Shown: positions 9,898 through 28,820, counted from the stretch's first letter. The stretch: 64,000 nt of DNA from Thermoproteota archaeon (GCA_027491435.1 JAOZFG010000003.1:8085-72084); one strand, 5' to 3'. The notes: generated from the letters alone by a model not told the origin. Numbers and translations are program-made.

Positions 9898-10473
9898 ATG
9901 TGCCTGGATGAAGTAAGAGAATGGCCCGATAGAAAGGGGGTGCTTTACGCCGAGGTGAACGTGCCTGAGTTCGGAAAAGTGGTGTTGAAGGACGTGGTGA
10001 TAATGTCTACCAGGTGGTGGTCGGACTTCATGTCAGGGATCTCCGTCATCTTCGGGGACAAGGCTTTGAGGCCCATTCTCTACTATTCAGCCTATCGGCT
10101 AATGAAGCAGCACAACCAGAGGGGGCTCATCAGGAAGATTAGAGAGTACGCTGACATTGACTCCCCTGAGGCCAGGAGGAGGATGTTCCACGTCGCCTCT
10201 GAGGTTTTCGCTTGTCTGGGCTTCGGTAGGATAGAAGGGGTGGAGATTGATGAGAACCACATAAGGGCTGTGGTGAAGGAATCTTTTGAGGCTAGAGGGA
10301 GAAAGTCCTCATCTCCCGTGTGTCACTTCGTGGCTGGAGTCATAGCAGCCCTAATAGAAGACATTTACGGCCTTAGAATAGGCCCTGTAAGGGAGGAGAG
10401 GTGTTCAGCCATGGGATCTGAATCCTGCCTCTTCGTCGCAGAGCTCATGGAGGAGAGACCCCATGAGGGTTGA
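9898..10473 (+). CDS. V4R-domain sensor protein (CorQ-like)
   Basis: GFGRIE...SFEA...CHFVAGVIAAL...EERCSAMGSESCLF V4R motif; upstream of the CODH genes. Confidence 0.85.
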   Translation: MCLDEVREWPDRKGVLYAEVNVPEFGKVVLKDVVIMSTRWWSDFMSGISVIFGDKALRPILYYSAYRLMKQHNQRGLIRKIREYADIDSPEARRRMFHVASEVFACLGFGRIEGVEIDENHIRAVVKESFEARGRKSSSPVCHFVAGVIAALIEDIYGLRIGPVREERCSAMGSESCLFVAELMEERPHEG

Positions 10474-11578
10474 GTCAGCCACTTTAGTCGTGAGGTCTGT
10501 AGGGAGGTGCTACCTTTCCTGTCCCTTTTGTCCCTGGAAGCTAAACAACTCGAGCTTTTTGGATAGATCCTCCCTGGAGGTAACGGTAGATGCGCTGATA
10601 GGCTCCATGTTTAAGCCCGACACCTACTTCATTTGTCCCGACCCCCTAGCCCATCCCGGCCTTGGAGAGTTAATCCAGACTGTTAGGGAGAGGAGGCTCC
10701 ACGTGACCGTGTTCGTCCCCGCTTCCACAAGGGTTAGGGAAGTTAACTGGTCAAACCTTCTGAAGGCCGACCAGATCTTCCTATTTTCCTATAATGGCGA
10801 TGAGCTTTTCGAAGCAGGTCCCCTGATAAGGTACCTGCTCATGAAGGGGGTCAGCGTTAAGTTAATGGCATTCGTTGTTCCCGGCATGAAACTCGACGAA
10901 TTCGAGTCAATCATGGCTTATGCCCAGAGGAGAGGGCTGGAGCTCTGGGCCTCCCTGCCCATACTCTGCCCGATCTCAGAGTGCCCCATAAATCTAGTTA
11001 AATTGATGAAATCCTGGGGGTTCCACGTCACCGAGCCTATAGGGGAGTTCATGAGCGTTTACATGGTCAGAATGGCCTTCAAGGGGGATTACCCAGTTAG
11101 GGTCGTAGAGGGTCCCATGTGTAGGAAGGACTGTAGGCTCCTCTTCTTAGATTCCAACGGGCTAGTCGGCAAGTGCCCAGCCAGCACTTTTCTAGGCATC
11201 TCTTCACCGCTTGAATTCGCTGCTGTAGTCAGGAAGGGATGCACCAGGGTAGGGGAGAAGGTCAAGTACTCTTTCGTGACTTCGGTGAAGCTTGTCACCA
11301 GTGAAGGGGCCGAAATCGATGAAAGGGATCTAGACCTACTCGCCTTATTGGAAGAAGTGGGTAGTTTAAGTAGCGCAGCGAAGATGCTGGGGGTTTCAAC
11401 CCCTTCCGTGCTCAGGAGGGTAAGGAAGGTGGAGGAACTCCTAGGAATGAGGTTGTTGGTAAGTAGGAGGGGTGGAGTTGATAGAGGAGGTGTATTCCTA
11501 ACACCTGAGGCTAGGGAACTCATAACCAAGTACAAGTCGGTGAAGTCCACCAGCAGCGTCCTCTCCAAGTTCACCTAA
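10463..11578 (+). CDS. Radical-SAM-like domain fused to a C-terminal ModE/LysR-type wHTH; putative CO-operon regulator (CorR-like)
   Basis: CxxxCxxC (CYLSCPFC), DPLAHP, later Cys motifs; C-terminal GSLSSAAKMLGVS...RRGGVDRGGVFLTPEA is a ModE-type wHTH. Confidence 0.75.
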   Translation: MRVESATLVVRSVGRCYLSCPFCPWKLNNSSFLDRSSLEVTVDALIGSMFKPDTYFICPDPLAHPGLGELIQTVRERRLHVTVFVPASTRVREVNWSNLLKADQIFLFSYNGDELFEAGPLIRYLLMKGVSVKLMAFVVPGMKLDEFESIMAYAQRRGLELWASLPILCPISECPINLVKLMKSWGFHVTEPIGEFMSVYMVRMAFKGDYPVRVVEGPMCRKDCRLLFLDSNGLVGKCPASTFLGISSPLEFAAVVRKGCTRVGEKVKYSFVTSVKLVTSEGAEIDERDLDLLALLEEVGSLSSAAKMLGVSTPSVLRRVRKVEELLGMRLLVSRRGGVDRGGVFLTPEARELITKYKSVKSTSSVLSKFT

Positions 11579-11601
11579 CGTTTTAACCTAGTGTTAAAAC
11601 G
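11579..11601. promoter_or_regulatory. Palindromic operator upstream of cooF
   Basis: Perfect inverted repeat CGTTTTAAC-ctagt-GTTAAAACG, about 15 bp upstream of an AT-rich TATA-like stretch (TTATAATA). Confidence 0.6.
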
Positions 11602-11677
11602 GGTCGTGATGCGTCTTTTATTGTTATAATATCGGAACAATTATTAAAATGTTCGACTAAGGTGTTCAGGGGGTAAG

Positions 11678-12259
11678 TTGGAAGCGGTGACGATTCCGGA
11701 GTACTTGATTTACGTCGACCCATCCCGATGCGTCGGATGTAGGAGTTGCGAATTAGCCTGTGCTGTAGAGCACTCGTCATCCAAGACCCTTTACGGTGCA
11801 ATAGCTGAGCTCCCCCCTCCCAGGCCTAGGACCAAGGTGATTCCAGCTGACGGAATATACGTGCCCATGAGGTGCATGCACTGCGATCCCGCTCCCTGCG
11901 TCGAGGCTTGTCCTACAGGTTCCATGCACAAAACTGAGGAGGGGTTCGTGATATCCAACCCGAGGAAGTGTATAGGTTGTAGAACCTGTTTGCTAGCCTG
12001 TCCCTTCGGACATCCCAGCTACAGCAGTGAGAACAAGGTGATCAAGTGCGACCACTGTGTTGACAGGATTAGGGCGGGCCTTCCTCCTGCCTGCGTTGAA
12101 GCTTGTCCAACCGGGGCTTTAAGGTATGGTAGGGCCGAAGAACTGTTGGACGAGGAGAAGAGGAGGCGCGCTTTGGAGCTCATTCTGGGACTAGGCGAGG
12201 GAGGGGTCGTGTACAGAAAGGCCAGGGAAGGTGCTCTGCACGCCCTTCTAGGGAGGTGA
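11678..12259 (+). CDS. cooF: CODH-associated 4x[4Fe-4S] electron transfer protein
   Basis: CVGCRSCELAC, CMHC.PAPCVEACP, CIGCRTCLLACP and KCDHC...PACVEACP motifs; immediately upstream of cooS. Confidence 0.9.
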   Translation: MEAVTIPEYLIYVDPSRCVGCRSCELACAVEHSSSKTLYGAIAELPPPRPRTKVIPADGIYVPMRCMHCDPAPCVEACPTGSMHKTEEGFVISNPRKCIGCRTCLLACPFGHPSYSSENKVIKCDHCVDRIRAGLPPACVEACPTGALRYGRAEELLDEEKRRRALELILGLGEGGVVYRKAREGALHALLGR

Positions 12260-12263
12260 TGGT

Positions 12264-14189
12264 TTGGAGGAGAGAATTTATGAGAGGTTAATGAAGGCCT
12301 CCAGGAGGGAGTTCTACGAGGGAGTTTCCTCCGACCCCACCGTCCCTCAGCTACTTGAGAAGGCCGAAAGGGATAAGATAGAGACTGTTTGGCACAGGTA
12401 CCTAGCACAACAACCCCAGTGCGGTTTCGGCCTTCTGGGGGTGTGCTGCAGGAACTGCAACATGGGCCCCTGCAGGATAGACCCCTTCGGCTACGGCCCA
12501 CAGAAGGGGGTTTGTGGGGCCACCGCCGATACTATAGTGGCGAGGAACCTGATGAGGATGCTGGCTGCTGGGGCTGCCGCCCATAGCGATCACGCTAGGG
12601 ACATAGCTGAGGTGTTCATGGGCATACCGGAGGGTTGGGCCAAGGATTACGGGATAAATGACAGGGAGAAGTTGGTGGCCGTGGCCGAAAGGCTGGGCAT
12701 CGAGACCGACGGCAAGGATGAAAAGGAGATAGCTAGAGAGATAGCTGAAATAGCTTTAATGGAGTTTGGTAAGCCTGGAGAAGATCCCCTTAAGTTCCTA
12801 GAAGCCTATGCTCCTGAGAAAAGGAAGGAGGTTTGGAAGAAGCTCGGGATAACTCCCAGGGCCATAGATAGGGAAGTGACGGAAATGATGCACAGGACTC
12901 ACATGGGGGTGGACGCTGACCCACTTAGCTTGATAGCTCATGGGCTTAGAACGGCCCTAGCTGACGGGTGGAGCGGCTCCCTAATGGCAACCGAGTTGAG
13001 CGACATAATGTTCGGTACCCCGAAGCCGATCAAGGTCTGGGCCAACCTGGGAGTGCTTAGAGAGGATGCGGTCAACATAATGGTTCATGGGCACAACCCC
13101 GTATTGTCCATGAAGATAGTAGAGGCTGCCAAGGATCCGGAGCTCAACGAGTTAGCCAAAAAGCTGGGGGCCACTGGAGGAATAAACGTTGTCGGAATGT
13201 GTTGCACGGGAAATGAGGTCTTAGTGAGACTAGGTATTCCGGTAGCGGGCAACCTTTTGCAGCAAGAGTTGGCCATAATAACAGGGGCCCTTGAGGCTGT
13301 AGTGGTGGACTACCAGTGCATAATGCCTGCCCTGGTTGACGTTGCCTCCTGCTACCACACCAAGGTCATAACCACAGAGCCAAAGACCCATATCCCCGGG
13401 GCCTTACACATAGAGTTCGACAAGGCCAACGCCCTGGAGACCGCCAAGGAGATAGTGAGAGTCGCCGTGGAAAACTTCCCCAACAGGAGAAAGGACAGGG
13501 TTTTCATCCCTAAGGAGAAGATGGAAGCAGTAGTGGGCTTCAGCGTTGAGGCCATACTTAAAGCCTTAGGAGGCACCTTAAAGCCGCTGGCTGAGGCTTT
13601 GAAGGTCGGAAAGATTAAGGGGATAGCTGGGGTGGTCGGTTGCACCAACCCGAAGACAAGACACGATTACAGCCACGTCACAATAACTAAGGAGCTCATA
13701 AAGAACGACGTGCTGGTGGTGGGCACCGGTTGCTGGGCTATCACCATGAGTAAGGCCGGGTTGTTCAAGCCGGAAGCCGCTGAGTTGGCCGGTCCTGGGC
13801 TAAAGGAGGTGTGTAAGTCTCTGGGTATACCTCCAGCGCTTCACATGGGGAGCTGCGTCGACTGTTCGAGGATGTTAGTGGCTATAGCTGCCCTAGCTGA
13901 CTACTTCGGGGTGGACATGTCCGATCTGCCCGTGGTGGGATCGGCTCCAGAGTGGATGAGCGAGAAGGCCGTCTCTATAGGGGCTTATTTCGTAGCCTCA
14001 GGGGTTCCCGTTCACCTAGGGACGGTGCCTCCAGTCTTGGGAAGCAAGAGGGTTGTGGAGATACTTACCGAGGAAGCTGAGAAGCTTGTAGGAGGTAAGT
14101 TCTTTGTTGAAACTGACCCGAAGAAGGCAGCTGAGGCTATGCTGAACATAATAATTGAGAAGAGGAAGAGGTTGGGCTGGCCTGTCTAA
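12264..14189 (+). CDS. cooS: Anaerobic Ni,Fe carbon monoxide dehydrogenase catalytic subunit
   Basis: CGFGLLGVCCRNCNMGPC (D/B clusters), AAAHSDH, HGHNP, CCTGNE, DYQC, GCTN, GCW, GSCVD and SEKA motifs. Confidence 0.97.
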   Translation: MEERIYERLMKASRREFYEGVSSDPTVPQLLEKAERDKIETVWHRYLAQQPQCGFGLLGVCCRNCNMGPCRIDPFGYGPQKGVCGATADTIVARNLMRMLAAGAAAHSDHARDIAEVFMGIPEGWAKDYGINDREKLVAVAERLGIETDGKDEKEIAREIAEIALMEFGKPGEDPLKFLEAYAPEKRKEVWKKLGITPRAIDREVTEMMHRTHMGVDADPLSLIAHGLRTALADGWSGSLMATELSDIMFGTPKPIKVWANLGVLREDAVNIMVHGHNPVLSMKIVEAAKDPELNELAKKLGATGGINVVGMCCTGNEVLVRLGIPVAGNLLQQELAIITGALEAVVVDYQCIMPALVDVASCYHTKVITTEPKTHIPGALHIEFDKANALETAKEIVRVAVENFPNRRKDRVFIPKEKMEAVVGFSVEAILKALGGTLKPLAEALKVGKIKGIAGVVGCTNPKTRHDYSHVTITKELIKNDVLVVGTGCWAITMSKAGLFKPEAAELAGPGLKEVCKSLGIPPALHMGSCVDCSRMLVAIAALADYFGVDMSDLPVVGSAPEWMSEKAVSIGAYFVASGVPVHLGTVPPVLGSKRVVEILTEEAEKLVGGKFFVETDPKKAAEAMLNIIIEKRKRLGWPV

Positions 14190-14190
14190 A

Positions 14191-14973
14191 ATGCCCCTGA
14201 GAGTCCTTGTAGCTGGAAAGGGCGGGGTTGGTAAAACCACGATCTCAGCCCTCCTCTCATTTTTTCTCTCATCTCGAGGAAAGAGAGTCCTGGCGGTGGA
14301 CACTGATTCAGTGCCTAACTTGGCTCTCGCCCTAGGACTACCCCAGGAGGTCGCCTCATCAATAACCCCCCTAGTCAGGGATGAAGGGCTCGTCGAGGAA
14401 AGGACCGGTGCTAGGCCCGGGCAGAGCTGGGGGGTCTTCTTCAGGCTTAACCCTAAGGTTGACGACCTGATCTCCAAGTACGGGATAAGGGTTAGGGATG
14501 GCCTAAACCTCCTGGTGGTGGGAAGCATCGACTCGGCGAAGCAAGGTTGCTTATGTCCCTCTATAGCGCTTGTTAAGGCGCTGTTAAGGCACATAATGCT
14601 TGAAGAGGGGGATGTCGTGGTCGTGGACGCCGAGGCAGGGGCTGAGGTCTTCGGAAGGGGACTAGCTGAGAACTTCGACCAGATGTTATGCGTCTCAGAG
14701 CCCACAGTCAAGTCCTTGGAGGTATCCAGGAAGCTCATCGAGATGGGTAAGCAGTTGGGCATAAGGGGGATCTCTCTAGTGGTCAACAAGTTCCGTGGGG
14801 GGGCTGAACTGGAGGAAAGGATAAAGAACACGTTTGACGTCGACGTCTACTTCATCCCCTATGATGAGAGCTTCCTTCAGGCTGAGATGGAAGGTAGAGG
14901 GGCAGACACCTATCCTAAAGACTCTCCAGGAGTTAAATCGGCTCATAAGATATTTCTAGAGCTCTTCGGGTGA
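14191..14973 (+). CDS. cooC: CODH nickel-insertion ATPase
   Basis: GKGGVGKTT, DTDSVPNL, GCLCP (CxC) and DAEAGAEVFGRG; ATG at 14191 directly after cooS. Confidence 0.93.
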   Translation: MPLRVLVAGKGGVGKTTISALLSFFLSSRGKRVLAVDTDSVPNLALALGLPQEVASSITPLVRDEGLVEERTGARPGQSWGVFFRLNPKVDDLISKYGIRVRDGLNLLVVGSIDSAKQGCLCPSIALVKALLRHIMLEEGDVVVVDAEAGAEVFGRGLAENFDQMLCVSEPTVKSLEVSRKLIEMGKQLGIRGISLVVNKFRGGAELEERIKNTFDVDVYFIPYDESFLQAEMEGRGADTYPKDSPGVKSAHKIFLELFG

Positions 14974-14977
14974 TCTC

Positions 14978-16927
14978 ATGGACGTTAAAGTCGGAATTTA
15001 CGTCTGTCACTGCGGTAAGAATATAGCTGGAAAGGTAGACGTGGTTAAAGTGGCCAATGAGCTCAGGAAGGATCCTAGAGTTTCAGTGAGCAGGCATTAC
15101 TTCTTCATGTGCAGCAGCTCCGGTCAAGAGATCATAAAGCGGGACATTGAAGCTGGAAGGGTGAATAGGATCGTGGTGGCGGCGTGTAGCCCTAAGTTAC
15201 ACGAGCCCCTGTTCAGGAGAGTTGTCAGCGAAGCTGGACTCAACCCAGGGTATTATGAACAGGCCAACATAAGGGAGCTCGTATCCTGGTCAACTGAGGA
15301 CCCTGAGAAGGCAACTGAGAAGGCCATAAGGTACACGAGAGCTGCCTTAGAGAAGGTCGTGTCAGCTCAGCCCATAGAGGTTAAGGAAGTTCCCGTCAAC
15401 AGGGAGGCGCTAGTGATAGGGGGAGGAGTTGCAGGCCTGACTGCAGCCCTAGACTTGGCTGAGAAGGGGATAAGGGTCCACCTGGTTGAGAAGAAGCCCA
15501 CAATAGGGGGAATGATGGCCCTCTTCGACAGGGTGTTTCCCACGGGCGATTGCTCCCTCTGCATACTGACGCCTATGATGGCCGAGGCCGAGGCTCATCC
15601 GAACATAACAATTTACACGAACTCCGAGGTCCTCGATGTGTCTGGTTCCGTGGGGAACTTCAGGGTGAGGGTGAGGAAGGACGCTAGATACGTGGACCTC
15701 GAGAAGTGTGTGACCTGTGACACCTGCTCCAAGGAGTGCCCAGTTGAGGTTCCCAACGAGTGGGACGCTTACCTGGGGACCAGAAAAGCCATCTACATAC
15801 CCTATCCCCAGGCCGTGCCTCGAGCTTACGTGGTAGACCCCGACAGCTGTCTCTACTTCAGAGACGGTAGCTGCAGGAGATGCGAAGAGGTTTGCCCTAC
15901 TAAGGCGATAAACTTGGATCAGGAGCCCGAGATCCTAGAGCTGGAAGTGGGCGCCATAATAGTGGCCACTGGGATGAAGGAGTATAACGCTTCAAACTTA
16001 AAGAACTACGGCTACGGCAAGTATCAGGACGTGATAACTCAATTCGGGTTTGAGAGGCTAGTTAACGTTACAGGGCCAACTCAGGGCGAGATAAGGAGGC
16101 CCAGCGACGGGAGGGTTCCTAAAAGGTTCGTCTTCATACAGTGCGCCGGAAGCAGGGACGTGAACCACAACCCCTACTGCTCCAACGTCTGTTGCATGGT
16201 GACGCTCAAGCAGGCCGAGATAATCAGAAGCGAGATACCTGACAGCCAGGTTTACGTGTGCTACATAGACATGAGGACCCCTAAGAGGGGGTTTGAGGAG
16301 ATGTACGCGAGGGTCAGGCAGGAGGGCGTCACCTTCATCAGGGGTAAGCCTGGGGAGGTCAGGAGGGAGGGAGATCATCTAATCGTCGAAGTCTTCGACG
16401 AGACCCTAGGGAAGAAGCTGATGCTTGAGGCAGACATGGTGATACTAGCGGCCGGCTTATCGCCCTCTGATGGCACCATAGGAATTAAAGAGGTGCTTAA
16501 CGTTGGCGCTGACTCTTATGGATTCCTTCAGGAGCTTCACCCCAAGCTAAAGCCAGTTCAGACTTCTAGACCAAGTATTTTCATATGTGGTGGAGCACAG
16601 GGGCCTAAAGACATTCCTGACTCCGTGACTCAAGCTAAAGCGGCTGCTAGCGAGGCCTCTGCCCTCCTGATAAGGGGTAAGGTGGAGATTCCAGGGGAGA
16701 GGGCTTACGTAAAGCCGGAGCTCTGCACTGGCTGTGGGGCCTGCGTGGAGGAGTGCCCGTTCCAGGCCATAGAGCTAGTTGAGGGTAAGGCCAGGGTCAT
16801 TGAGGCCGCCTGCGCTGGATGTGGGATATGTCAGGGGGTATGTCCCAAGGGAGCCATCGAGAGGAGGCTCTACACTGGAGAGGAAGTTTTGAACCAAGTT
16901 GACGGCCTGTTGGAGGTGATAGGTTGA
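14978..16927 (+). CDS. hdrA: Heterodisulfide reductase subunit A
   Basis: GIYVCHCG, FMCS, AACSP, GGGVAG FAD motif, DCSLC, inserted ferredoxin, QCAGSRD...YCSNVCCM..LK, C-terminal ferredoxin. Confidence 0.96.
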   Translation: MDVKVGIYVCHCGKNIAGKVDVVKVANELRKDPRVSVSRHYFFMCSSSGQEIIKRDIEAGRVNRIVVAACSPKLHEPLFRRVVSEAGLNPGYYEQANIRELVSWSTEDPEKATEKAIRYTRAALEKVVSAQPIEVKEVPVNREALVIGGGVAGLTAALDLAEKGIRVHLVEKKPTIGGMMALFDRVFPTGDCSLCILTPMMAEAEAHPNITIYTNSEVLDVSGSVGNFRVRVRKDARYVDLEKCVTCDTCSKECPVEVPNEWDAYLGTRKAIYIPYPQAVPRAYVVDPDSCLYFRDGSCRRCEEVCPTKAINLDQEPEILELEVGAIIVATGMKEYNASNLKNYGYGKYQDVITQFGFERLVNVTGPTQGEIRRPSDGRVPKRFVFIQCAGSRDVNHNPYCSNVCCMVTLKQAEIIRSEIPDSQVYVCYIDMRTPKRGFEEMYARVRQEGVTFIRGKPGEVRREGDHLIVEVFDETLGKKLMLEADMVILAAGLSPSDGTIGIKEVLNVGADSYGFLQELHPKLKPVQTSRPSIFICGGAQGPKDIPDSVTQAKAAASEASALLIRGKVEIPGERAYVKPELCTGCGACVEECPFQAIELVEGKARVIEAACAGCGICQGVCPKGAIERRLYTGEEVLNQVDGLLEVIG

Positions 16928-17793
16928 GAGTAGTGGGTTTCTGTTGCAATGAGTGCGCCTACGCCGCAGCTGACCTGGCCGGTAGCACCCACAGGGTCCA
17001 CCCGCCTGAGGTGTTAGTGGTTAGGATACCTTGCTCAGGGATCGTTGACCCATCTTGGCTCGTGTACGCCTTAGCTAAGGGGGCTGACGCCGTGTTCGTA
17101 GCGGGTTGCAGGAAAGGAGAGTGTCACTACGTTGATGGAAACTTCAAGGCCGAGTCGAGGGTCGCCTTCGTCAAGGAGCTCCTCAAGTCAGTTGGAGTAG
17201 AGCCGGAGAGAGTGGAGATGTTCTTCATGGCCGCCTCAGAACCTCACAAGTTCGTGGAGGCCGCCAAGGAGATGGTAAGGAGGGTCGAGGAGCTTGGTCC
17301 CTTGGAGAGGAAGGGGGCCCCGAAGAGGGAAGGTAAGAAGGGCGTGATAGCCAGCTCCCTCCTGGCAATAGCTAAAACCGTCATTGACGCTCCGTTGCCG
17401 GAGATACCTGGGTTTAGAGTTCCTAACTTCTCAAGTGAGTGCATAGGGTGTGGTGCCTGCGTTGAGACCTGTCCTGAGAGGGCGTTGAAGGTGAGGGACT
17501 ACAACGGGAAGAGGGTTATAGAGCTTAACGCCAGGAGGTGCACCTCGTGCGGCAAGTGCGTCGAGGTCTGCGACGAGGTAGAGAAGGCGCTAACCTTGGG
17601 AGGGATGACACTAAAACAGCTTTTGGAGGAGTGGTCAGTCGTCTCTGCTCACGATCTAGTTGAGTGCGAGGTCTGCGGGAGGCCCTTCGCTACACAGAGG
17701 GAGCTCGACAGGTCAGGTTCCCCGAAGGTCTGCCCCTCATGTAAGGAGAGGTTATCGGCTAGGGCCATGGTCGTAGGGAGGGTAGGGCCGTGA
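16924..17793 (+). CDS. mvhD: MvhD [2Fe-2S] subunit fused to a 2x[4Fe-4S] + CxxC/CxxC domain
   Basis: FCCNECAYAAADLAG, RIPCSG and GCRKGECHY, followed by CIGCGACVETCP, CTSCGKCVEVC and CEVC...CPSC. Confidence 0.9.
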   Translation: MRVVGFCCNECAYAAADLAGSTHRVHPPEVLVVRIPCSGIVDPSWLVYALAKGADAVFVAGCRKGECHYVDGNFKAESRVAFVKELLKSVGVEPERVEMFFMAASEPHKFVEAAKEMVRRVEELGPLERKGAPKREGKKGVIASSLLAIAKTVIDAPLPEIPGFRVPNFSSECIGCGACVETCPERALKVRDYNGKRVIELNARRCTSCGKCVEVCDEVEKALTLGGMTLKQLLEEWSVVSAHDLVECEVCGRPFATQRELDRSGSPKVCPSCKERLSARAMVVGRVGP

Positions 17794-18263
17794 TCGAGGA
17801 GATCAAGTCCATCTCCGGTCAGGACGTCAACTTGTGCTACCAGTGCGGCGAGTGCTCATCTTCCTGCCAGGTAGCAGGGGTTGATGGCTTTTACCCAAGC
17901 GTCCTAATTCACAGGATAAAACTTGAGGACCCCGGAGTGCTGGATGAGAGAAAGTTTGAGGTCTGCCTGCACTGCTTCCTCTGTACCGTGAGGTGTCCAC
18001 AAGGCATAAGCTTCCCAGACGTAGCGACAGCCCTTTCGAACATTTGGGTCAAGAGATACGGTCCTGACAGGGTTGAGAGGGCTTTCCTAAAGGAGTTGAG
18101 GGAGAGGGGTTTCATAAACCCGGTAAGGGTTGCCCTCTCGGCTTTAGGGCTTCACTCCTTCAAATCTCTGAGTTCCAAGGCTTTGAAGCTAATGAGGGCT
18201 TCTTCAAGGTCGGGGAAGGTTAGGGAGGACCTCCTTAAGGAGGTGAGGGAGATTGTCCCCTGA
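17790..18263 (+). CDS. hdrC: Heterodisulfide reductase subunit C
   Basis: CYQCGECSSSC and CLHCFLCTVRCP; lies between mvhD and hdrB. Confidence 0.9.
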   Translation: MIEEIKSISGQDVNLCYQCGECSSSCQVAGVDGFYPSVLIHRIKLEDPGVLDERKFEVCLHCFLCTVRCPQGISFPDVATALSNIWVKRYGPDRVERAFLKELRERGFINPVRVALSALGLHSFKSLSSKALKLMRASSRSGKVREDLLKEVREIVP

Positions 18264-18984
18264 GGTGTCCTACTACCCGGGGTGCACTGGGACGACCACC
18301 GAGAGGGCCTATGTCAAGACGGCCCTCATGGTCTTGAAAGACCTTGGCTTTGAGGTGAGGCTGTTAGAAGACCTCCCCTGCTGTGGAACTCTGGAAGCCG
18401 AGCTGGTCGATGTCTCAATAACTAAGAGGTTAGCCTCTCTGATAAACAGGGAGGCTGGGAACGTCATAACCGGATGTAGCGGGTGTTACAGCAATATAAA
18501 GAGGGGAGGGGGCGAGGCTACCCACCTCCTGCACTTCTTGGTGAAGGAGGTAGGCCTTAGCGAGGTCAAGAATAGGGTAAAACGTCCATTGAGGTTGAAG
18601 GTGGCTCCATATTATGGGTGTCAGGCCCTAAGGCCTAGATTCCTAGCCATAGACGATCCTGAGGATCCTAAGATCTTTGAGGAGCTTTTGATGGCTATAG
18701 GAGCTGAGCCTGTGGAGTTTGATATGAGGATCAAGTGTTGCGGTGGACCCATTTCGCTGAGGAGACCTTTAGAGGCTAGGAAGATGGCCGAAGAGGTTGT
18801 TAAGTCGGCTAATATGGCAGGAGCTGAAGTTGTAGCTACGATGTGCAACCTGTGTCACTTCATGCTTGACTACTACACTAACGAAATGCCGGTGCTCCAC
18901 TTCACCCAGCTGGTGGCCCTGGCCTTCGGGCATCCATTCGAAGAGATGGATTTTGAGGAGCACTACAATAGGGTTTTGAGGTGA
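18253..18984 (+). CDS. hdrB: Heterodisulfide reductase subunit B (compact)
   Basis: Two CCG domains: YYPGC...CCG...CSGC and YYGC..LRP...CCGG...CNLC. Confidence 0.92.
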   Translation: MSPEVSYYPGCTGTTTERAYVKTALMVLKDLGFEVRLLEDLPCCGTLEAELVDVSITKRLASLINREAGNVITGCSGCYSNIKRGGGEATHLLHFLVKEVGLSEVKNRVKRPLRLKVAPYYGCQALRPRFLAIDDPEDPKIFEELLMAIGAEPVEFDMRIKCCGGPISLRRPLEARKMAEEVVKSANMAGAEVVATMCNLCHFMLDYYTNEMPVLHFTQLVALAFGHPFEEMDFEEHYNRVLR

Positions 18985-18988
18985 TATC

Positions 18989-19177
18989 ATGTGTGAGGGT
19001 GTAGTTTTCCTGGTGAGGGATGGTGAGAGGGTCAAGGTCATGGAAAACGTTGTCTCCCTCCACCTGAAGGGTGGAAGGGCCATACTGGTTGACGACTTCG
19101 GGAGGGACAAAGTGATAGAGGGGGTTAAAGAGGTAAGGGTAAACATGGTGGCCCACGAGATCACCCTCTACCCCTAA
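18989..19177 (+). CDS. cooT: CooT-family nickel chaperone
   Basis: MCE N-terminus, DDFG, C-terminal His (VAHEI), 62 aa; closes the CODH operon and is followed by a T-tract. Confidence 0.8.
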   Translation: MCEGVVFLVRDGERVKVMENVVSLHLKGGRAILVDDFGRDKVIEGVKEVRVNMVAHEITLYP

Positions 19178-19217
19178 ACCTTTTTTAGGGGCCTAACTGT
19201 TCCGGGCCGGTGGTAGG

Positions 19218-19787
19218 GTGGCCTCAATACCTCCTACTGTCTCCTACGTCATGGCGGTCTTAGACATGCTAGCTACCTCCATAGCTGCATACATAGCCTG
19301 GCTCTCCTACAAGGGTTACAAGTACGGGTTCCCCAGGATGAGGACGACTTTGGTCTCCTTCTCAGCGCTCAGCCTATCCTTTACAGCTTCAGCTTACGTG
19401 TCCCTGCTCCTATCCTCGCCGCCAAGGGGACCGCCAACTTCGTGGATGCCTCACCTTCTGAGGAATCCCCTGTTCATCGCCGTGCAGTTCGGTTACGCCG
19501 TGAGCTACCTAACGTTACTGCTGGGATTTAGGAGGGGTGAGGTGGACTATCTTTTCCTCGTGCCCACGTTACCATTCATAGTTGCAATAGCAGTCTACCT
19601 GGCGAGCAGGGAGAGGGCCTCTCCAAAGGCTCAGGTAACTTACTTAGGTTTGGCCCTGTCTCACCTGATCACAACTCTGGCCTTCCTGACGTATAAGCCA
19701 TGGCTCCTGATAGTAGGAGAGCTGGTGAGGTCTCTTTCCCTAATCCCCATTGCAATCTTGCTAGGGGAGGCCTGGCATGAGGCGTAA
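19218..19787 (+). CDS. Hypothetical multi-TM membrane protein
   Basis: About 6 hydrophobic helices; overlaps the downstream wHTH gene. Confidence 0.7.
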   Translation: MASIPPTVSYVMAVLDMLATSIAAYIAWLSYKGYKYGFPRMRTTLVSFSALSLSFTASAYVSLLLSSPPRGPPTSWMPHLLRNPLFIAVQFGYAVSYLTLLLGFRRGEVDYLFLVPTLPFIVAIAVYLASRERASPKAQVTYLGLALSHLITTLAFLTYKPWLLIVGELVRSLSLIPIAILLGEAWHEA

Positions 19788-20040
19788 GTACAGGTCTCAG
19801 GCCGCCATAGTATGCGACATACTGGAGGCCATATCATCCAAGCCGGGCATAGCTCCCTCTAGGTTAAGCCAGGAGGTAAACGTGCCCTACACGAGGCTAG
19901 TTGAGTATTTGGAGCTCCTCAAGGAGAAAGGGTTAATATTTGATGATAAAGGACTCAATCTAACGGAGGAGGGCTTTAAAATTTTGGTTGAGATGAGGAG
20001 GATTAGGAGGATATTCTCCTCTCTTGGGCTTAAGCTTTAA
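19777..20040 (+). CDS. Small winged helix-turn-helix transcriptional regulator
   Basis: RSQAAIVCDILEAI...PSRLSQEVNVPYTRLVEYLELL...LTEEG, an archaeal wHTH (HTH_45-like) pattern. Confidence 0.85.
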   Translation: MRRKYRSQAAIVCDILEAISSKPGIAPSRLSQEVNVPYTRLVEYLELLKEKGLIFDDKGLNLTEEGFKILVEMRRIRRIFSSLGLKL

Positions 20041-21057
20041 TCAGCATATTCTCGGAACCACTGCCCCTAGGGGCCTCTCCATCACTCTAAGCCCGCCCAC
20101 CTTAGTTTCCAAGATCACCATTCCTCGATACTTGGAGCTCTCCTTGACCTCGCCTATTATCGAGGCCCTATCGCACCCTCTCTCCTTAAGGAAGTTTAAC
20201 ACGTCCTCAGAGACCTCCGGGCTAACTCCCAGGACGGCCTTGCCCTCTGAGGCCAGTTGCAATGGGTCCACTCCCAGAAGCTCTGAGAGGGCCTTAACTT
20301 CTTCGGCTATTGGTATCGATTCCTCCCTAACGGTTATTAGGAGGCCAGTCTTGGAGGCCCACTCGTTCAGGACCTGCGCTAAACCTCCTCTAGTTGGATC
20401 TTGGGCAGCCCTTATCTGGTCCCCGAACTCCTCTAGGAGGGGGAGCATAACCTGGGTCAGAGGCTTGACGTCGCTCTCAACGCCTTCAATCCCCTGTTGA
20501 GCTGCTAGTATAGCGGCTCCGTGATCCCCAACCGTTCCTGTAACCAGCAACTTATCTCCAGGTTTTAAGGAGGAGTCCAGTATCGGCTTCTCAGCCCAAC
20601 CCACGCCTACGGTTGTTATCACCACGCCCCTCAAATCTCCGAAGGGCATGACCTTGAAGTCCCCGCCTACAAGCTTAACGCCGTTCTCCCTAAAGACCTG
20701 AATCATGCTGGAGGTTATCTTCTTGAGCTCCTCTAACTCAAAGCCCTCCTGAACTATGATTGAGTCCATAGCTGCTACAGGCTTGGCTCCCATCATTAGA
20801 ACGTCGTTAATCGTGCCGGACGCTGCTAATACCCCGAGGTTGCCTCCGGGAAAGAAGGGCGGATTTACCGTGTAGGAGTCGACGCTCATCACCAGGTGAT
20901 TCTCGCCTGCAGGCAGTGTGGCTCCATCATCTAGTTCATCAGTCCCGACCCCTCCCTCAACCCTCTTCATGTCCTCATCCAGTAGGGAGAGGATGAGCTT
21001 TTGTACCATGTCTTGGGTGGCCTTTCCTCCAGCCCCGTGAGATAAGTTCACTCTCAT
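20041..21057 (-). CDS. hypE: Hydrogenase maturation protein HypE
   Basis: LSHGAGG, DSYTVNP.FFPGG, DPTRGGL and C-terminal PRIC. Confidence 0.97.
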   Translation of the reverse strand: MRVNLSHGAGGKATQDMVQKLILSLLDEDMKRVEGGVGTDELDDGATLPAGENHLVMSVDSYTVNPPFFPGGNLGVLAASGTINDVLMMGAKPVAAMDSIIVQEGFELEELKKITSSMIQVFRENGVKLVGGDFKVMPFGDLRGVVITTVGVGWAEKPILDSSLKPGDKLLVTGTVGDHGAAILAAQQGIEGVESDVKPLTQVMLPLLEEFGDQIRAAQDPTRGGLAQVLNEWASKTGLLITVREESIPIAEEVKALSELLGVDPLQLASEGKAVLGVSPEVSEDVLNFLKERGCDRASIIGEVKESSKYRGMVILETKVGGLRVMERPLGAVVPRIC

Positions 21058-21279
21058 CTAATCACCTAAAGATTCCAGCAGCTCTTGCCAGGTCTTTATC
21101 ATATCCTTAGCCTCCTCCTCGTTAACTTTTGAGATTATCATGCCCACGTGAACGATAACGTAGTCGCCTGGGCTAACCTCCTCCAGCGTGGCGTCTACCT
21201 CCCTCCTTATCCCGTTGAAGTCGACAAGGGCCCTCCTGCCCTTAACCTCGATAACCCTACCGGGAATCCCCAGGCACAT
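21058..21279 (-). CDS. hypC: Hydrogenase maturation chaperone HypC
   Basis: MCLGIPG N-terminus; GDYVIVHVG. Confidence 0.97.
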   Translation of the reverse strand: MCLGIPGRVIEVKGRRALVDFNGIRREVDATLEEVSPGDYVIVHVGMIISKVNEEEAKDMIKTWQELLESLGD

Positions 21280-22027
21280 TGATTATCACCTCCACCAGGT
21301 CGTTAAAGGCTCTCTCAAGCTCTGGAGAAGACTTATGCGGTGGATCGCCGGACCTGATAGCCTCCTCTACCGAGGGCTCCATGGGTATTCTGGCTATCAC
21401 CCTAACGCCCAAGTTCGAGTAGTCGACCTCGCCGAAGGGCTTCACCTTCTCGCCCCCACAGCTCAGATAGCTCATGTTCTCAACTACTCCCAGCAGGGAA
21501 AATCTCTCGTCCCTTATCATGTTAATGGCCCTCCTCACGACCTCGATGGAGGCCTTAGATGGAGTGGTGACCACCAACACCTTAGACTTCCTCCTGTTAA
21601 ACGACCTGAGGGCCCAGAGGAACTCATCACCTGTGCCAGGGGGCATGTCAACCACCAGGTTATTGGCCGACCACTTGGTCATGGCCATCATCGTGTAAAT
21701 CAGGGGCCACTTGTCCTCACCCTTGAACGGGAGGGGAGTCCCTTCCGTGAGTAAGGCTAGGGACATGTACTCCACCTCACCTCTCCTCGCCGGTATTAAC
21801 CCCTCCTTGCTGGCCCTTACCCTGCCAACACCTAGAAAAGATGTTGTTGATGGTCCGTGAAGGTCTAGGTCAAGAAGGCCCACCGACAGGCCCCTGTCTG
21901 CCATGGTCAGAGCTAAACAGGAGGAGACGAAGCTCTTGCCCACGCCTCCCTTTCCCGAAGCTACTATCACCACCCTTTCAAATTCAGAAGCCTTCTTAAG
22001 GGCCCATCTTCCCAAGAAGTCGTTCAT
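21257..22027 (-). CDS. Mrp/NBP35-family ATPase (probable HypB substitute for Ni delivery)
   Basis: SGKGGVGKS, DLDLHGPS, DMPPGTGDE and VENMS; adjacent to hypA, as with the Thermococcales Mrp-type HypB. Confidence 0.85.
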   Translation of the reverse strand: MNDFLGRWALKKASEFERVVIVASGKGGVGKSFVSSCLALTMADRGLSVGLLDLDLHGPSTTSFLGVGRVRASKEGLIPARRGEVEYMSLALLTEGTPLPFKGEDKWPLIYTMMAMTKWSANNLVVDMPPGTGDEFLWALRSFNRRKSKVLVVTTPSKASIEVVRRAINMIRDERFSLLGVVENMSYLSCGGEKVKPFGEVDYSNLGVRVIARIPMEPSVEEAIRSGDPPHKSSPELERAFNDLVEVIINVPGDSR

Positions 22028-22449
22028 CTGGATCCCTCCAGCCTAGAAACCCTGATTCCCTTGCCTTTAATCGCCTGGAAGTCCCTGCTCTGACATTTAG
22101 GGCACTTAATCAGGGCTGGGGCCAGCTCGGGTATGAAGTGAACAGAGCTTTCCTCAACGCCCTCCTCTAACACCTTCCTGTCACCCTCTATCAGCTCGTG
22201 AGAGAACTCCCACTCGTTGCCGCACCTGGAACACCTGAACACCGTAGGCTCCTCAACGACCGAGAATTCTACGCTCTCAAAGGACCCTCCCTTGGATAGC
22301 TCTGTTAGGGCCTCCTTCAGCAGGGATCCGTCCAGCTCCATCACGCTACCATAACTGACTTCTACGAAGTGAACGTTGGACAGGCCCTCTGACTTGGCCA
22401 AGTCTTCCAGGGCATCTAGGATCATAAACGCAATTGACCACTCGTGCAT
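22024..22449 (-). CDS. hypA: Hydrogenase nickel metallochaperone HypA
   Basis: MHEWSIA start; CSRC and CPKC zinc finger; archaeal HFIPE insert. Confidence 0.95.
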   Translation of the reverse strand: MHEWSIAFMILDALEDLAKSEGLSNVHFVEVSYGSVMELDGSLLKEALTELSKGGSFESVEFSVVEEPTVFRCSRCGNEWEFSHELIEGDRKVLEEGVEESSVHFIPELAPALIKCPKCQSRDFQAIKGKGIRVSRLEGSR

Positions 22450-23003
22450 CAGGCGCCCCCACACCTGAACATGCCTTCAAGAAAGGCCTTCTCGTTCACC
22501 TTCATGGGGAACCCCCTCTTCCCTAACTCCCTAGTTAGCAGGCGAAGGGCCTTTAAACTGGCTGTCACAACTTCATCTGAAAGATTTTCCCCGAGATCTA
22601 CCTCTTTAACGGCGATCCCCACCACGTAAGCCTCTGGCAGGTATCCCAAGGAGGCTGCAGCCGCCAGCAGAATGTCTGGTGTTATCCCGTGGCTACCGTA
22701 CTCGGCGACCATCCTTATGGCCTCCCTAGACACTTGGGGGTTCACCTTGTACAGGATCACTTGCCCTGGCTCTCCCTGGACGGCATCCACTATGTAGGCC
22801 AGCTCAACCCCCTCAAAATAGTCAAGGAGGTTCAGGCCTCCAAGCCCGCCATCAACCACCAGAAGCCACTCATGATTAATCAGGGAGCCCAGGACCTCGG
22901 CGAAGCAGGAGCCCACCCCGTCGTCCCCGAGGAGCCTGTTGCCCACACCCATTATCAGGACCTTAGGGCCTCCCTTAACAGGTTCTCCATGACTTGGACA
23001 CAT
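22449..23003 (-). CDS. Hydrogenase maturation protease (HycI/HybD family)
   Basis: GVGNRLLGDDGVG, VDGG, IVDAV and SHG motifs. Confidence 0.93.
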   Translation of the reverse strand: MCPSHGEPVKGGPKVLIMGVGNRLLGDDGVGSCFAEVLGSLINHEWLLVVDGGLGGLNLLDYFEGVELAYIVDAVQGEPGQVILYKVNPQVSREAIRMVAEYGSHGITPDILLAAAASLGYLPEAYVVGIAVKEVDLGENLSDEVVTASLKALRLLTRELGKRGFPMKVNEKAFLEGMFRCGGA

Positions 23004-23584
23004 TTTCCATCATCTTCCCAACTTCCTTCAATTATCGAGAACCTTTTAACCCCGGCTAGAACGGCTAGAGCGGTGGCCAAGTCCTCAGGGTCCCTGGACC
23101 CGGTCATAGATTTGGATATTAGCTCGTTCGCCTCCACCTTATCCCCTGGGACCTCAGCCTGAAACTCCCTTTTGGAGAGCTCACAGGGCCCCTCCTCTAT
23201 CCTCACTATGACCACTTGGTCCGGTCCCATTTGCCTGATCTCCTCGACGTCTGCCAGCGGATAGTGGGTGACGTCCATCAGCCTCACGCCAGGGAACTTG
23301 GGCAACCTATCTACGGGAACGTCAGCTGACATGTATAGCACGAGTTTAGTACCCATCCTTATCACCTTTCCGCCCGCCCTCAGGCCAGATAGTTCAGACA
23401 CTCCGAGGGACCTGAGCACCTCCTCCTTCATCTTGTCCACGTCCTCATCTCTGGCGTTGGGCATCTGGTAAAGGAATCCCTCCACTCCAAGGAGTTTGAG
23501 GGCTTCTCCTTTTACCTTGGCCTTCTGATCCTCTACCTCTCTAGCTATTGACAGGAAGACCTTCACGACCTCTTTAAGGTTCAT
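22955..23584 (-). CDS. Hypothetical protein within the hydrogenase operon
   Basis: Long ORF with typical codon usage, co-oriented between the isp2-like gene and the protease. Confidence 0.7.
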   Translation of the reverse strand: MNLKEVVKVFLSIAREVEDQKAKVKGEALKLLGVEGFLYQMPNARDEDVDKMKEEVLRSLGVSELSGLRAGGKVIRMGTKLVLYMSADVPVDRLPKFPGVRLMDVTHYPLADVEEIRQMGPDQVVIVRIEEGPCELSKREFQAEVPGDKVEANELISKSMTGSRDPEDLATALAVLAGVKRFSIIEGSWEDDGKCVQVMENLLREALRS

Positions 23585-23600
23585 CGGGACACCCAAAAAA

Positions 23601-24905
23601 TTATGGGAGGTAGTCCTGGAGGTAGGAGACTATGTGAACCGCCTTAAACTCCTTGCCGAACTTCTTGGCCCCTTTGTTTATCGTGTGGATGCAGGTGGAG
23701 CACCCGGTGACTACGAGCTCCGCCCCTGACTCTTCTATCTCGTCCACTTTGTTCTTGACGGCGACTAGGTGATCTTTCTCAAGCTCCTCACAGAACTTGG
23801 CACTGGAGATTAATTCGCCCAGCAGCTCCCTCAGCATTCTCCTCCCCTCCTCGGCCATTAAAGATATTCCAGTCCCCCCTCCGCAGCAGTGGGAGTACAT
23901 CCCTATACCCTTTGGTAGGTCCCTGTACTGCTTTGAGGTGGCTTTAATCAGGTGCCTGGGCTCCTCTATGAGGCCGCCTCCCCTAGCCATCTTGCAGGGG
24001 TCGTGCCAAGTCACCTTAACCCCGTCTTGTTTCAGATTGAGCTTGCCCTCGGAGTACATTTCGTGGAGGAGTTCTACCACATGAATCACCTTGAAGGGAG
24101 CCCTTTCACCGAGCACGAAGGGGAGCTCGAACCTTAAGTCCATGTAGGGAGTGCCTCCATGGGATAGCAGCGCCGCCTTCCCTTTGTGGGACTTCACGTA
24201 ATCCACTATCCTCTTGAAGACCACCTTTCTGGCCTTCTTGTCGCCCATTATGGTTCCTAACGCCGGTTCTATGGCCAGGGGTTTGGAGGGCATGCTCCAG
24301 TTCAGGTTAAGCTTGTCGAGAAGTTTGACCGTGTCAACTATGACCTCTGGAGTGAGTATGGCCTCTATAAGCCAGGGAAGGTATATTAGGTCGGCTGGCC
24401 TGTCAAGGGGAAGCTCCCCGCCAATTGCCTCCTGAGCCCTCTTAAGCGCCTCGTTCCAAGCGCTAATAAGCCCGTTGGGGAAGTTCCCTGAAACTTCCAC
24501 GTCCTTTAGTACGGTGAGGCAGGAGGGGGTCATCCCAACCCTATCTATTATCTGCCTGAGCATCATGATGAGCTCTCCGCTATAAATGCCTAGGGGACAC
24601 GTCTGGTAGCAGTACCTGCAGTTGGTACACCTGTAAGCCATCTCCCTTATCCTTTCCAAGTCCTCTTTGTCCCTGGGGAGCTTAGCCCCCACCAGCTCAC
24701 CCAGAATTTTGCCCGCGAAGGTCATCTCCTTCCTGTAGATGAACCTCATCTCCTCAGCCTTGTTGACGGGCTCGTACTTGACGTCTGCGTAGTAGAATGG
24801 GCAGTGAGGTCCGCAAAGGCCGCAGGAAACGCAGCCCTCCAGGTAATGTAACCTAACAGGGTCTACCTCCCTGAGAACTGATCTTATGGCCTCTTGAACG
24901 CTCAT
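23601..24905 (-). CDS. Isp2/HdrD/DsrK-like Fe-S protein of the hydrogenase complex
   Basis: CVSCGLCGPHCP, CTNCRYCYQTCP, and a C-terminal CCG domain HDPC...CCGGG...CSTC. Confidence 0.88.
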   Translation of the reverse strand: MSVQEAIRSVLREVDPVRLHYLEGCVSCGLCGPHCPFYYADVKYEPVNKAEEMRFIYRKEMTFAGKILGELVGAKLPRDKEDLERIREMAYRCTNCRYCYQTCPLGIYSGELIMMLRQIIDRVGMTPSCLTVLKDVEVSGNFPNGLISAWNEALKRAQEAIGGELPLDRPADLIYLPWLIEAILTPEVIVDTVKLLDKLNLNWSMPSKPLAIEPALGTIMGDKKARKVVFKRIVDYVKSHKGKAALLSHGGTPYMDLRFELPFVLGERAPFKVIHVVELLHEMYSEGKLNLKQDGVKVTWHDPCKMARGGGLIEEPRHLIKATSKQYRDLPKGIGMYSHCCGGGTGISLMAEEGRRMLRELLGELISSAKFCEELEKDHLVAVKNKVDEIEESGAELVVTGCSTCIHTINKGAKKFGKEFKAVHIVSYLQDYLP

Positions 24906-25687: not shown

Positions 25688-25696
25688 ACTCCCCCC

Positions 25697-28698: not shown

Positions 28699-28742
28699 TG
28701 GAACACCTCACATTATATCATCGTTACAGATACACATACTTA

Positions 28743-28820
28743 CATATTATAACTCTTGCTAATCAATTTAAGGAGACTTATCATATTATAACTCTTGCTA
28801 ATCAATTTAAGGAGACTTAT
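28743..28820. repeat. Perfect 39-bp tandem duplication containing the putative BRE/TATA of the hydrogenase operon
   Basis: catattataactcttgctaatcaatttaaggagacttat at 28743-28781 and 28782-28820; the minus strand reads GCAAGAG-TTATAATA. Confidence 0.9.

Follow-up and report, generated by a model that had tools for sequence, protein, structure and literature searches.

We describe here an operon of eight genes that joins a nickel-dependent carbon monoxide dehydrogenase (Ni-CODH) to the subunits of a heterodisulfide reductase (Hdr)-type flavoprotein complex. It occupies positions 11678-19177 of a 64,000-nucleotide stretch of DNA from a hot-spring Thermoproteota archaeon (GCA_027491435.1, JAOZFG010000003.1:8085-72084), which is referred to throughout as the window. 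The genes, cooF-cooS-cooC-hdrA-mvhD-hdrC-hdrB-cooT, all lie on the + strand, with successive intergenic distances of +4, -35 (or +1), +4, -4, -4, -11 and +4 bp. An earlier annotation made without database searches (hereafter the sequence-only reading) had described this gene content, order and co-orientation, with genes that overlap or stand at most 4 bp apart, and our gene calls and Pfam/NCBIfam assignments bear it out. That cooT closes the operon, so that the hdr genes are bracketed by CODH genes, also held, and cooT lies 3' of hdrB at most relatives' loci that reach that far as well. The cluster is free of mvhAG, fdh, acetyl-CoA synthase (ACS) and energy-converting hydrogenase (ECH) genes, as had been said, and MvhAG, ACS and ECH were likewise not found genome-wide.

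The CODH moiety has the expected components. The four-cluster ferredoxin encoded by cooF (11678..12259, +; PF13247, Fer4_11) shares 73-81 % identity with orthologues of its family and 52-60 % with its counterparts at L002, L003 and L005, loci of ECH or Nuo type described below. The catalytic subunit gene cooS (12264..14189, +) encodes a protein that scores 779 bits against TIGR01702 (cut-off 478) and 1015 bits against PDB entry 6T7J, in an alignment that spans residues 19-641 and in which the Cys/His stretches that bind the clusters are matched and intact. The gene for the Ni-insertion ATPase, cooC, was called at 14155..14973 (+; CbiA/ParA P-loop families; 61-75 % identity to orthologues), and its true start is likely the in-frame ATG at 14191, 1 nt past the cooS stop codon. 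The Ni chaperone gene cooT (PF10133, E = 5e-11) lies at 18989..19177 (+). The CooS equivalog score, the cluster ligands and the accessory genes together place the enzyme among Ni-CODHs of the CooS type with CooF, CooC and CooT.

The Hdr moiety begins with hdrA (14978..16927, +), which encodes the flavin and Fe-S subunit and scores 658 bits against 5ODC_A over residues 3-645. The GGGVAG dinucleotide-binding motif and all six [4Fe-4S] Cys motifs are aligned in that comparison, those of the C-terminal ferredoxin domain included, and the one insertion, of 5 residues, falls within the inserted ferredoxin domain. The top NCBIfam model for HdrA is HdrA2, at 815 bits and thus under the cut-off of 1100. 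Downstream of mvhD, an hdrC-like gene (17790..18263, +) encodes a 2x[4Fe-4S] subunit (Fer4_17, Fer4_8; 46.7 bits against TIGR03290, cut-off 160), and an hdrB-like gene (18253..18984, +) encodes a protein of 243 residues that matches PF02754 twice and carries two CCG motifs, the ten cysteines of which are invariant in 12 orthologues. HdrB matches its methanogen counterparts weakly (top PDB match 92 bits, mostly over residues 86-237; NCBIfam 112 bits, cut-off 345). By sequence, then, the parts of a bifurcating Hdr are in place, namely the flavin adenine dinucleotide (FAD) fold and motifs of HdrA, the two CCG motifs of HdrB, the 2x[4Fe-4S] arrangement of HdrC and the [2Fe-2S] site of MvhD; the usual donor module (MvhAG, FdhAB or FrhB) is not, nor is a CoM-S-S-CoB substrate with an Mcr-bearing host.

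The gene between hdrA and hdrC (16924..17793, +) encodes MvhD (PF02662 over residues 3-125, 158 bits; 125 bits against 5ODC_D, Cys conserved; also a match to the C-terminal part of the HdrA2 NCBIfam model) fused to a CooX/HycF-like domain of 2x[4Fe-4S] type with a Cys4 ribbon. The homology of this extension to CooX/HycF-like subunits is a point beyond the sequence-only reading. Residues 147-279 of the fusion align with the entire 165-residue ferredoxin subunit of the ECH that adjoins CODH in genome G030 (34 % identity over 152 residues, E = 2e-19) and with the ferredoxin subunit of the ECH of L002 (37 % identity), and both NCBIfam and PDB place the extension in the same family (HyfH/HycF; 7Z0S chain F). 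The fusion is 289 residues long in all 12 aligned orthologues, in which the MvhD cysteines, the two CxxCxxCxxxC motifs and the C-terminal CxxC...CxxC ribbon are invariant. MvhD carries the extension at 12/12 CODH-type loci, as against 0/17 loci of other kinds (Mvh-type, FrhB-type and the rest), where MvhD is either stand-alone (13 loci, 133-157 residues) or fused to HdrA (4 loci). Wherever the extension was seen, a CooF or CooF-like gene stood beside it (12/12 CODH-type and 4/4 Flx-like loci).

Subunits of the CooX/HycF/NuoI type adjoin ferredoxins of the CooF/HycB type in such hydrogenase complexes. A complex of CooF with the fusion was modelled from our own alignments of 16 and 12 rows, in three runs and with three controls. 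The model scored 0.70, whereas the best of the 3 controls scored 0.00; this mark is attained by 58/80 solved complexes and by 2/110 mismatched pairs. Contact agreement was at least 81 % across the three runs, and the partners had a predicted local distance difference test (pLDDT) value of at least 75. The predicted interface pairs fusion residues 176-182, 215-219 and 256-283 with CooF residues 99-112, around the third cluster motif. This modelling, part of what the sequence-only reading had suggested, predicts that CooF docks on the extension, and a CooF:CooX-type docking surface appears to be retained on the MvhD fusion.

The fusion is rare. In a collection of 5.8 billion proteins, 15 clusters matched it at 59-71 % identity, and a second tier comprised 19 clusters at 32-41 % identity and at least 89 % coverage, 3 of them labelled Asgard/Heimdallarchaeota. 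At the four metagenome loci of this second tier, which are Flx-like (L117-L120), the gene order is Fer4_22, NAD_binding_1/DHODB (FlxA-like, NAD(P)H/FAD), CooF-like, HdrA, a 322-residue MvhD::CooX-like fusion, HdrC and HdrB, so that a Flx-type donor sits where CODH sits in the window operon. From this arrangement, the pair of a CooF-like ferredoxin and an MvhD::CooX fusion has the look of an all-purpose plug for donor modules.

The linkage of coo and hdr genes was followed through 43 genomes, in the searched collection, of the small archaeal phylum to which the window genome belongs and which we take to be, probably, Korarchaeia. HdrA of the CODH-linked type (68-86 % identity, the top values coming from fragments) was present in 14/43 of these genomes: 8/21 in the genus of the window genome, 4/5 in a second genus and 2/4 in a third. 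Ten genomes, that of the window among them, have cooS and hdrA on the same contig at a distance of about 0.8 kb; 2 more hold the junction on a short contig, and in 2 of the 14 contig ends fall within the operon, so that its parts are on separate contigs. All nine full loci that were fetched read V4R, LysR helix-turn-helix (HTH), cooF, cooS, cooC, hdrA, mvhD fusion, hdrC and hdrB, with identities to the window of 79-84 % for CooS, 68-75 % for HdrA, 64-68 % for the fusion, 56-64 % for HdrB and 46-60 % for HdrC. The operon also occurs on 8 metagenome contigs. Directly 3' of hdrB, cooT is found on the same strand at 8/10 relatives' loci that reach that far and at 8/8 metagenome loci; at the remaining 2/10 it is nearby on the opposite strand. 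Because the operon is syntenic across further genomes of the phylum, the coo-hdr arrangement is not a chance one, and because it is also present on a closed chromosome (1,590,757 bp) of the same genus, the operon DNA itself is not new.

Outside the phylum, cooS neighbourhoods were surveyed with one genome per species, over the best 80 of 582 confirmed relatives. In none of these 80 do hdrA, mvhD, hdrC and hdrB follow the coo genes; at one of them, L031 from a Bipolaricaulota metagenome-assembled genome, hdrCBA lies about 6 kb from cooS. The four closest loci (65-68 % CooS identity) all have cooF-cooS-cooC, and two have the V4R and LysR pair; a V4R gene stands upstream of cooF in the ECH-type loci L002 and L003. 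What follows cooFSC varies: an ECH in L002, an ECH after cooT in L003, and NuoE/F/G-like genes in L005, L004 being a 4.1-kb contig that ends just past cooT. In G030, which belongs to the same family as the window genome, cooFSC-cooT is followed by Mrp/Nuo/[NiFe] group-4 genes, and L095 also has an ECH with membrane subunits at the Hdr position. Since relatives carry ECH or NuoEFG-like modules there, the Hdr block occupies the position of the electron-accepting partner of CODH-CooF, between cooC and cooT.

A quick maximum-likelihood tree of HdrA (LG+G4) was built from 37 near-full-length sequences, to the exclusion of L031, of matches to only part of the protein and of redundant metagenome contigs. 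In it, the 15 of the 37 that are linked to CODH form one clade, with a value of 100 in the Shimodaira-Hasegawa-like approximate likelihood ratio test (SH-aLRT), and the sister group consists of two metagenomic sequences from the Flx-like loci L117-L120 (support 96). Other HdrA paralogues of the phylum adjoin an MvhA-like [NiFe] hydrogenase (L126-L128) or a FrhB-like gene (nine loci). The neighbourhood survey and HdrA phylogeny that the sequence-only reading had called for thus returned a linkage within the phylum, none among the best 80 of 582 loci elsewhere, and one HdrA clade. By synteny and this phylogeny, the CODH-Hdr linkage is conserved and of single origin.

Two further observations concern relatives. 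In another family of the class, locus L094 (G038:C4, 3161-7615) has cooF-cooS (81 % CooS identity) without hdrA, together with a divergently oriented 278-residue CooF-like polyferredoxin and a 277-residue CCG (HdrB-like) protein; judged from these genes, it could be a flavin-free link from CODH to a disulfide reductase. Loci L126 and L127 (genomes G012 and G015, of the same genus) carry a second, Mvh-type set that lacks a counterpart in the window genome, comprising two HdrA-like genes, a 144-residue MvhD, an MvhA-like [NiFe] hydrogenase and hyp genes.

Upstream of cooF lie two genes that resemble a known CO-responsive regulator. A V4R-domain protein (9898..10473, +; PF02830, E = 1.2e-11) would be the sensor half of a CorQR-like pair, and its gene is kept 5' of cooF in all full loci of relatives; a protein with a C-terminal LysR-type HTH (10463..11578, +; PF00126 over residues 288-351), syntenic in relatives at 41-45 % identity, would be the DNA-binding half. 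CorQR is the CO-responsive regulator pair that flanks the CODH-hydrogenase cluster of Thermococcus onnurineus and is made up of V4R and LysR-type HTH proteins, as the accessible text of its report describes (PMC6557876). Our pair matches that description in domain make-up and position.

The 99-bp, AT-rich intergenic spacer before cooF (11579..11677, +) is the presumed promoter/operator, and within it a 23-bp palindrome (11579-11601, +) stands directly 3' of the stop codon of the LysR-like gene. When 11 orthologous spacers were aligned, an inverted repeat and a TCGGAA...TTAT box appeared at matching positions, as judged by eye and without statistics; the box also recurs, again by eye, in the spacer of the Asgard ECH-type locus L002. 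On this pattern, the palindrome and box may be an operator or promoter of the CorQR-like regulators. A hairpin followed by a T6 run (19171..19191, +), which overlaps the cooT stop codon, is a presumed archaeal terminator. T runs and TATA-like words were scanned by script along the operon, and the single further run of at least five T on the + strand of 11678-19177 is a T6 at 14260, within cooC. A scan for sigma-70 promoters and intrinsic terminators gave counts close to shuffled expectation; its model does not cover archaeal signals, and it was set aside.

The window genome is a 1.64-Mb assembly of 43 contigs, 99.46 % complete. It has one CooS and one each of HdrA, MvhD, HdrC and HdrB, the last four all within the operon (tblastn; PF02662). 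McrA (PF02249) and FrhB (PF04432) gave no match in it, and ACS/CdhC and DsrC were not found in the genome search. The single match to PF00374 genome-wide is the large subunit of a group-1-type [NiFe] hydrogenase (25697-27472, -), and PF00346 retrieved one NuoD-like gene without a hydrogenase signature. Since these are the only matches, an Mvh-type or energy-converting hydrogenase is not available to the genome. Several other CCG proteins are encoded, among them the Isp2-like subunit of the neighbouring hydrogenase, which hints at a thiol/disulfide carrier shared by HdrB and other CCG proteins such as Isp2. The search for CoM/CoB and DsrC substrates that the sequence-only reading had proposed yielded no Mcr and no DsrC; it turned up only a fusion of ComA (phosphosulfolactate synthase) with a TrmB HTH (G000:C16:26244-30663; L104, 8245-12664). 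This fusion adjoins SdhA/SdhB-like (SdhABCD) genes and a sulfur-transport-family protein, with no comB/C/D/E or other coenzyme M biosynthesis genes seen nearby, and we do not regard it as evidence for coenzyme M. The term heterodisulfide, as used in the sequence-only reading, finds no support in its CoM-S-S-CoB sense: no mcrA was found in the genome, and HdrB and HdrC fall far under the methanogen equivalog cut-offs.

It is hypothesized that the operon encodes one CO-induced system, in which Ni-CODH is the hard-wired electron input of an HdrABC-type flavoprotein complex and in which the complex bifurcates electrons; on gene content and predicted models we give this a little under an even chance. 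CO would be oxidised at CooS, and electrons would cross the four CooF clusters to the CooX/HycF-like 2x[4Fe-4S] domain on MvhD and continue through the MvhD [2Fe-2S] site to the FAD of HdrA. From this flavin, one branch would lead by way of HdrC to HdrB, with its two non-cubane clusters, and on to a disulfide or persulfide other than CoM-S-S-CoB, while the second would probably leave by the C-terminal ferredoxin domain of HdrA to soluble ferredoxin. The two branches together would constitute flavin-based bifurcation, with CO replacing H2, formate or NADH. The sequences show the gene content, its conservation, the cofactor motifs, the fusion and the lack of other partners in the genome, whereas the assembly into a complex, the course of the electrons, their bifurcation and the nature of the substrate are inferred; the substrate would not be the methanogenic heterodisulfide because no mcr was found. 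The sequence-only reading had put forward CODH as the partner of Hdr, in place of a module of hydrogenase, Fdh or Flx type, and the claim is strengthened by the genome having a sole Hdr and a sole CODH and by their conserved linkage of single origin. CO as the donor to Hdr draws further support from the swapping of partners after cooC, the predicted docking of CooF on the fusion and the CorQR-like regulator genes.

The standard potential of the CO2/CO couple is -520 mV, and for this reason bifurcation looks needless. Our own Nernst estimate for 85 °C, at which the couple shifts by 35.5 mV per decade of pCO2/pCO, places it at about -390 to -430 mV with nanomolar CO and 0.01-0.1 atm CO2, near the standard H2/H+ couple; to obtain fully reduced ferredoxin there, electrons would have to be bifurcated, with reduction of the disulfide as the exergonic half. 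Aquifer CO is given as 0.2-20 nM in work cited in the accessible text of PMC4703632.

Several points weigh against a CODH-driven bifurcating complex. The system is known here solely from genes and predicted models, and HdrA, HdrB and HdrC all fall under the NCBIfam equivalog cut-offs. Public sequencing runs were looked up for positions 11600-19200, and none was listed. The T6 within cooC and possible promoters inside the coding sequence could break up transcription of the operon. At high CO, bifurcation is not thermodynamically required, because CODH can reduce ferredoxin directly. The passing score of the CooF:fusion model may mirror a likeness to HycB-HycF-type contacts, since such complexes have been solved and 7Z0S_F matches the extension. 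The adaptor pair, too, is not specific to CODH, because fusion and CooF-like gene also occur at the sister Flx-like loci, beside an NAD(P)H module that stands in for CODH.

In a simpler use of the same wiring, the complex would be a CO:disulfide/persulfide oxidoreductase without bifurcation that passes all CO electrons to the HdrB substrate, and its role would be to balance thiol redox state, reduce sulfur or detoxify CO. We consider this unlikely, though it deserves to be taken seriously. CO at -520 mV can reduce a disulfide unaided, the operon holds no dedicated ferredoxin gene, and L094, with cooF-cooS, a CooF-like gene and a CCG gene but no hdrA, suggests that a flavin-free route from CODH to CCG proteins exists. 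Such an enzyme would, however, lose about 380 mV per electron, which is wasteful, and the full bifurcating HdrA architecture is kept at 68-75 % identity in three genera, with the C-terminal ferredoxin domain, the low-potential exit in 5ODC, included.

A second alternative is co-expression without a complex, in which CODH-CooF would reduce soluble ferredoxin and a separate HdrABC-MvhD would oxidise it, as is reported for HdrA2B2C2 of Methanosarcina. CooS enzymes commonly use soluble ferredoxin, and the top NCBIfam match of HdrA is the HdrA2 model. Two independent enzymes would nevertheless leave unaccounted for a CooX-like extension that occurs only beside a CooF or CooF-like gene and that is predicted to bind CooF, as well as the insertion of the hdr genes between cooC and cooT, and we rate this explanation as rather improbable.

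The neighbourhood raises a third, that Hdr is served by another donor, either the group-1 [NiFe] hydrogenase with Isp1/Isp2 or an FdnGHI-like enzyme, and that CODH lies beside it only because Ni/Fe-S maturation or regulation is shared. Genes of the hydrogenase and hyp set do start 0.9 kb downstream, and Isp2, as an HdrD/DsrK-like CCG protein, may act on the same thiol pool as HdrB. This hydrogenase is nevertheless encoded on the opposite strand, is of the membrane-bound uptake type and has an HdrD-like subunit of its own; in relatives it is on other contigs or far off while coo-hdr is intact, and MvhG-, MvhA- and FrhB-type partners were not found in the genome. Service by another donor therefore seems to us distinctly improbable.

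In known complexes, the MvhD side of HdrA is the entry used by H2, formate or NADH modules. Reverse operation, which the sequence-only reading had kept as an option and in which Hdr would feed low-potential electrons to CODH for reduction of CO2 to CO, is highly improbable in spite of PDB entry 7BKB being among the HdrA matches and of the analogy with Hdr-formylmethanofuran dehydrogenase (Fmd) supercomplexes, which are described in the accessible text of PMC13580544 as channelling bifurcated electrons via polyferredoxins to a CO2-reducing enzyme: the predicted docking is on the MvhD side and not at the HdrA ferredoxin-domain exit, a mid-potential port of this kind cannot drive CO2 reduction, no ACS or other CO sink was found, neither operon nor genome showed a mid-potential donor module, and the regulator genes resemble a CO-responsive pair.

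Bifurcating complexes of the Hdr type play a central part in how anaerobes conserve energy, and to our knowledge their known donor modules are hydrogenase, formate dehydrogenase, F420-dependent and NADH-dependent ones. If CODH does drive bifurcation by Hdr here, CO would be a new input for such complexes. Beyond this, we suggest tentatively, and with clearly more doubt than conviction, that CO is a fourth donor class for Hdr-type bifurcation after H2, formate/F420H2 and NADH, that the MvhD::CooX fusion re-used the CooF docking subunit of a CO-dependent hydrogenase, and that trace CO would yield fully reduced ferredoxin and a reduced thiol/disulfide carrier independently of Mcr. Scavenging of CO in hot springs would then gain an energy-conserving route without a hydrogenase, and this carrier may also be used by Isp2, the HdrD-like subunit of the adjacent uptake hydrogenase. 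The fusion is a clear example of the rewiring of redox modules via domain fusion, and it offers a handle, by tagging or truncation, for finding the disulfide substrate of a non-methanogenic Hdr. A survey of Korarchaeia reports that a "partial HdrABC/MvhD complex" is retained in every genus though MvhA is missing, which it calls puzzling, and CooS is not mentioned in the accessible part of its text (PMC10667645); a CODH-driven complex would explain these orphan HdrABC/MvhD sets of Korarchaeia lacking Mcr and MvhA.

The remainder of the window holds further redox genes. Past the terminator, 19218-20040 contains orf189 and then an HTH_45/Sso10a-like gene, neither of which is kept beside the operon in relatives; orf189 has no Pfam family, and its Protein Atlas matches are unnamed archaeal clusters alone. 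The group-1-type membrane-bound uptake [NiFe] hydrogenase and hyp operon follows at 20041-32484 (-; typed by its neighbouring genes), with the small subunit at 27469-28698 (-), the large subunit at 25697-27472 (-), an HmcE/TmcC-like membrane protein at 24902-25687 (-) and the DsrK/HdrD-like CCG protein (Isp2) at 23601-24920 (-). The same operon also holds a 213-residue protein without assignment and a maturation protease, then HypA, an Mrp-like ATPase, HypC and HypE; HypF and HypD of this region are on the + strand. An FdnGHI-like membrane molybdoenzyme (53911-59070, -) has three subunits, an alpha of 1209 residues, a beta and a gamma of cytochrome-b type, none of which reaches the NCBIfam cut-off for formate dehydrogenase, and a ModE/MoeA-like gene is found at 59582-60610. 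A reverse gyrase (46466-49750, -; TIGR01054, 1253 bits) implies that the host is a hyperthermophile.

No description of a cooFSC-hdrA-mvhD-hdrCB operon was found in the searchable full-text literature. In the accessible text of the CODH context survey of Inoue et al. 2019, Hdr-like clusters of orthologous groups (COGs) appear only in the Wood-Ljungdahl neighbourhood group (PMC6344411), and no Hdr term was found in that of Techtmann 2012. Among known systems, MvhAGD-HdrABC (PDB 5ODC; the H2:CoM-S-S-CoB/ferredoxin oxidoreductase) and FdhAB-MvhD-HdrABC resemble the window operon in the HdrA motifs, the MvhD [2Fe-2S] site, HdrC and the two-CCG HdrB. The window operon differs from them in having Ni-CODH and CooF as the donor instead of MvhAG or FdhAB, and in the CooX/HycF-like extension of MvhD; from methanogen HdrABC it differs further in a genome in which no mcr was found, a 243-residue HdrB of weak match and scores short of the equivalog cut-offs.

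The CODH-CooF-ECH systems (Rhodospirillum rubrum cooFS/cooMKLXUH; T. onnurineus with CorQR) have in common with the window operon cooF-cooS-cooC-cooT, a V4R and LysR-HTH pair of like domain make-up and the CooX-like module, and the closest CooS/CooF relatives (L002, L003 and G030, the outside loci being among the best 80 of 582) are in a CODH-ECH context. An ECH with Mrp/Nuo-type membrane subunits beside coo is, by contrast, absent from the window operon and was not found in its genome. The operon has neither hydrogenase nor Mrp-type membrane subunits and possesses the CooX-like module only as an MvhD-fused domain, and the proposed electron sink is a soluble Hdr and not protons.

FlxABCD-HdrABC is an NADH dehydrogenase/heterodisulfide reductase (Ramos et al. 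2015, as cited in the accessible text of PMC4703632). Like the window operon, it combines HdrABC, outside the methanogens, with a subunit resembling MvhD and with adaptor proteins of Fe-S type. Its NAD(P)H-binding FlxA-like component (NAD_binding_1/DHODB) is missing from the window operon, which has CODH instead, and occurs at L117 and L119, two of the sister loci. HdrA2B2C2 of Methanosarcina acetivorans is F420H2/ferredoxin-dependent. The best NCBIfam model of the window HdrA is HdrA2, the C-terminal part of which is matched by MvhD, whereas in the window HdrA and MvhD are encoded by separate genes, no FrhB/F420 marker was found in the genome and the HdrA score lies under the cut-off of the model (815 against 1100). 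On these comparisons of sequence and gene order, the operon appears to encode an Hdr-type complex of otherwise known kind, set apart by CODH as its donor and by an adaptor fusion that is new.

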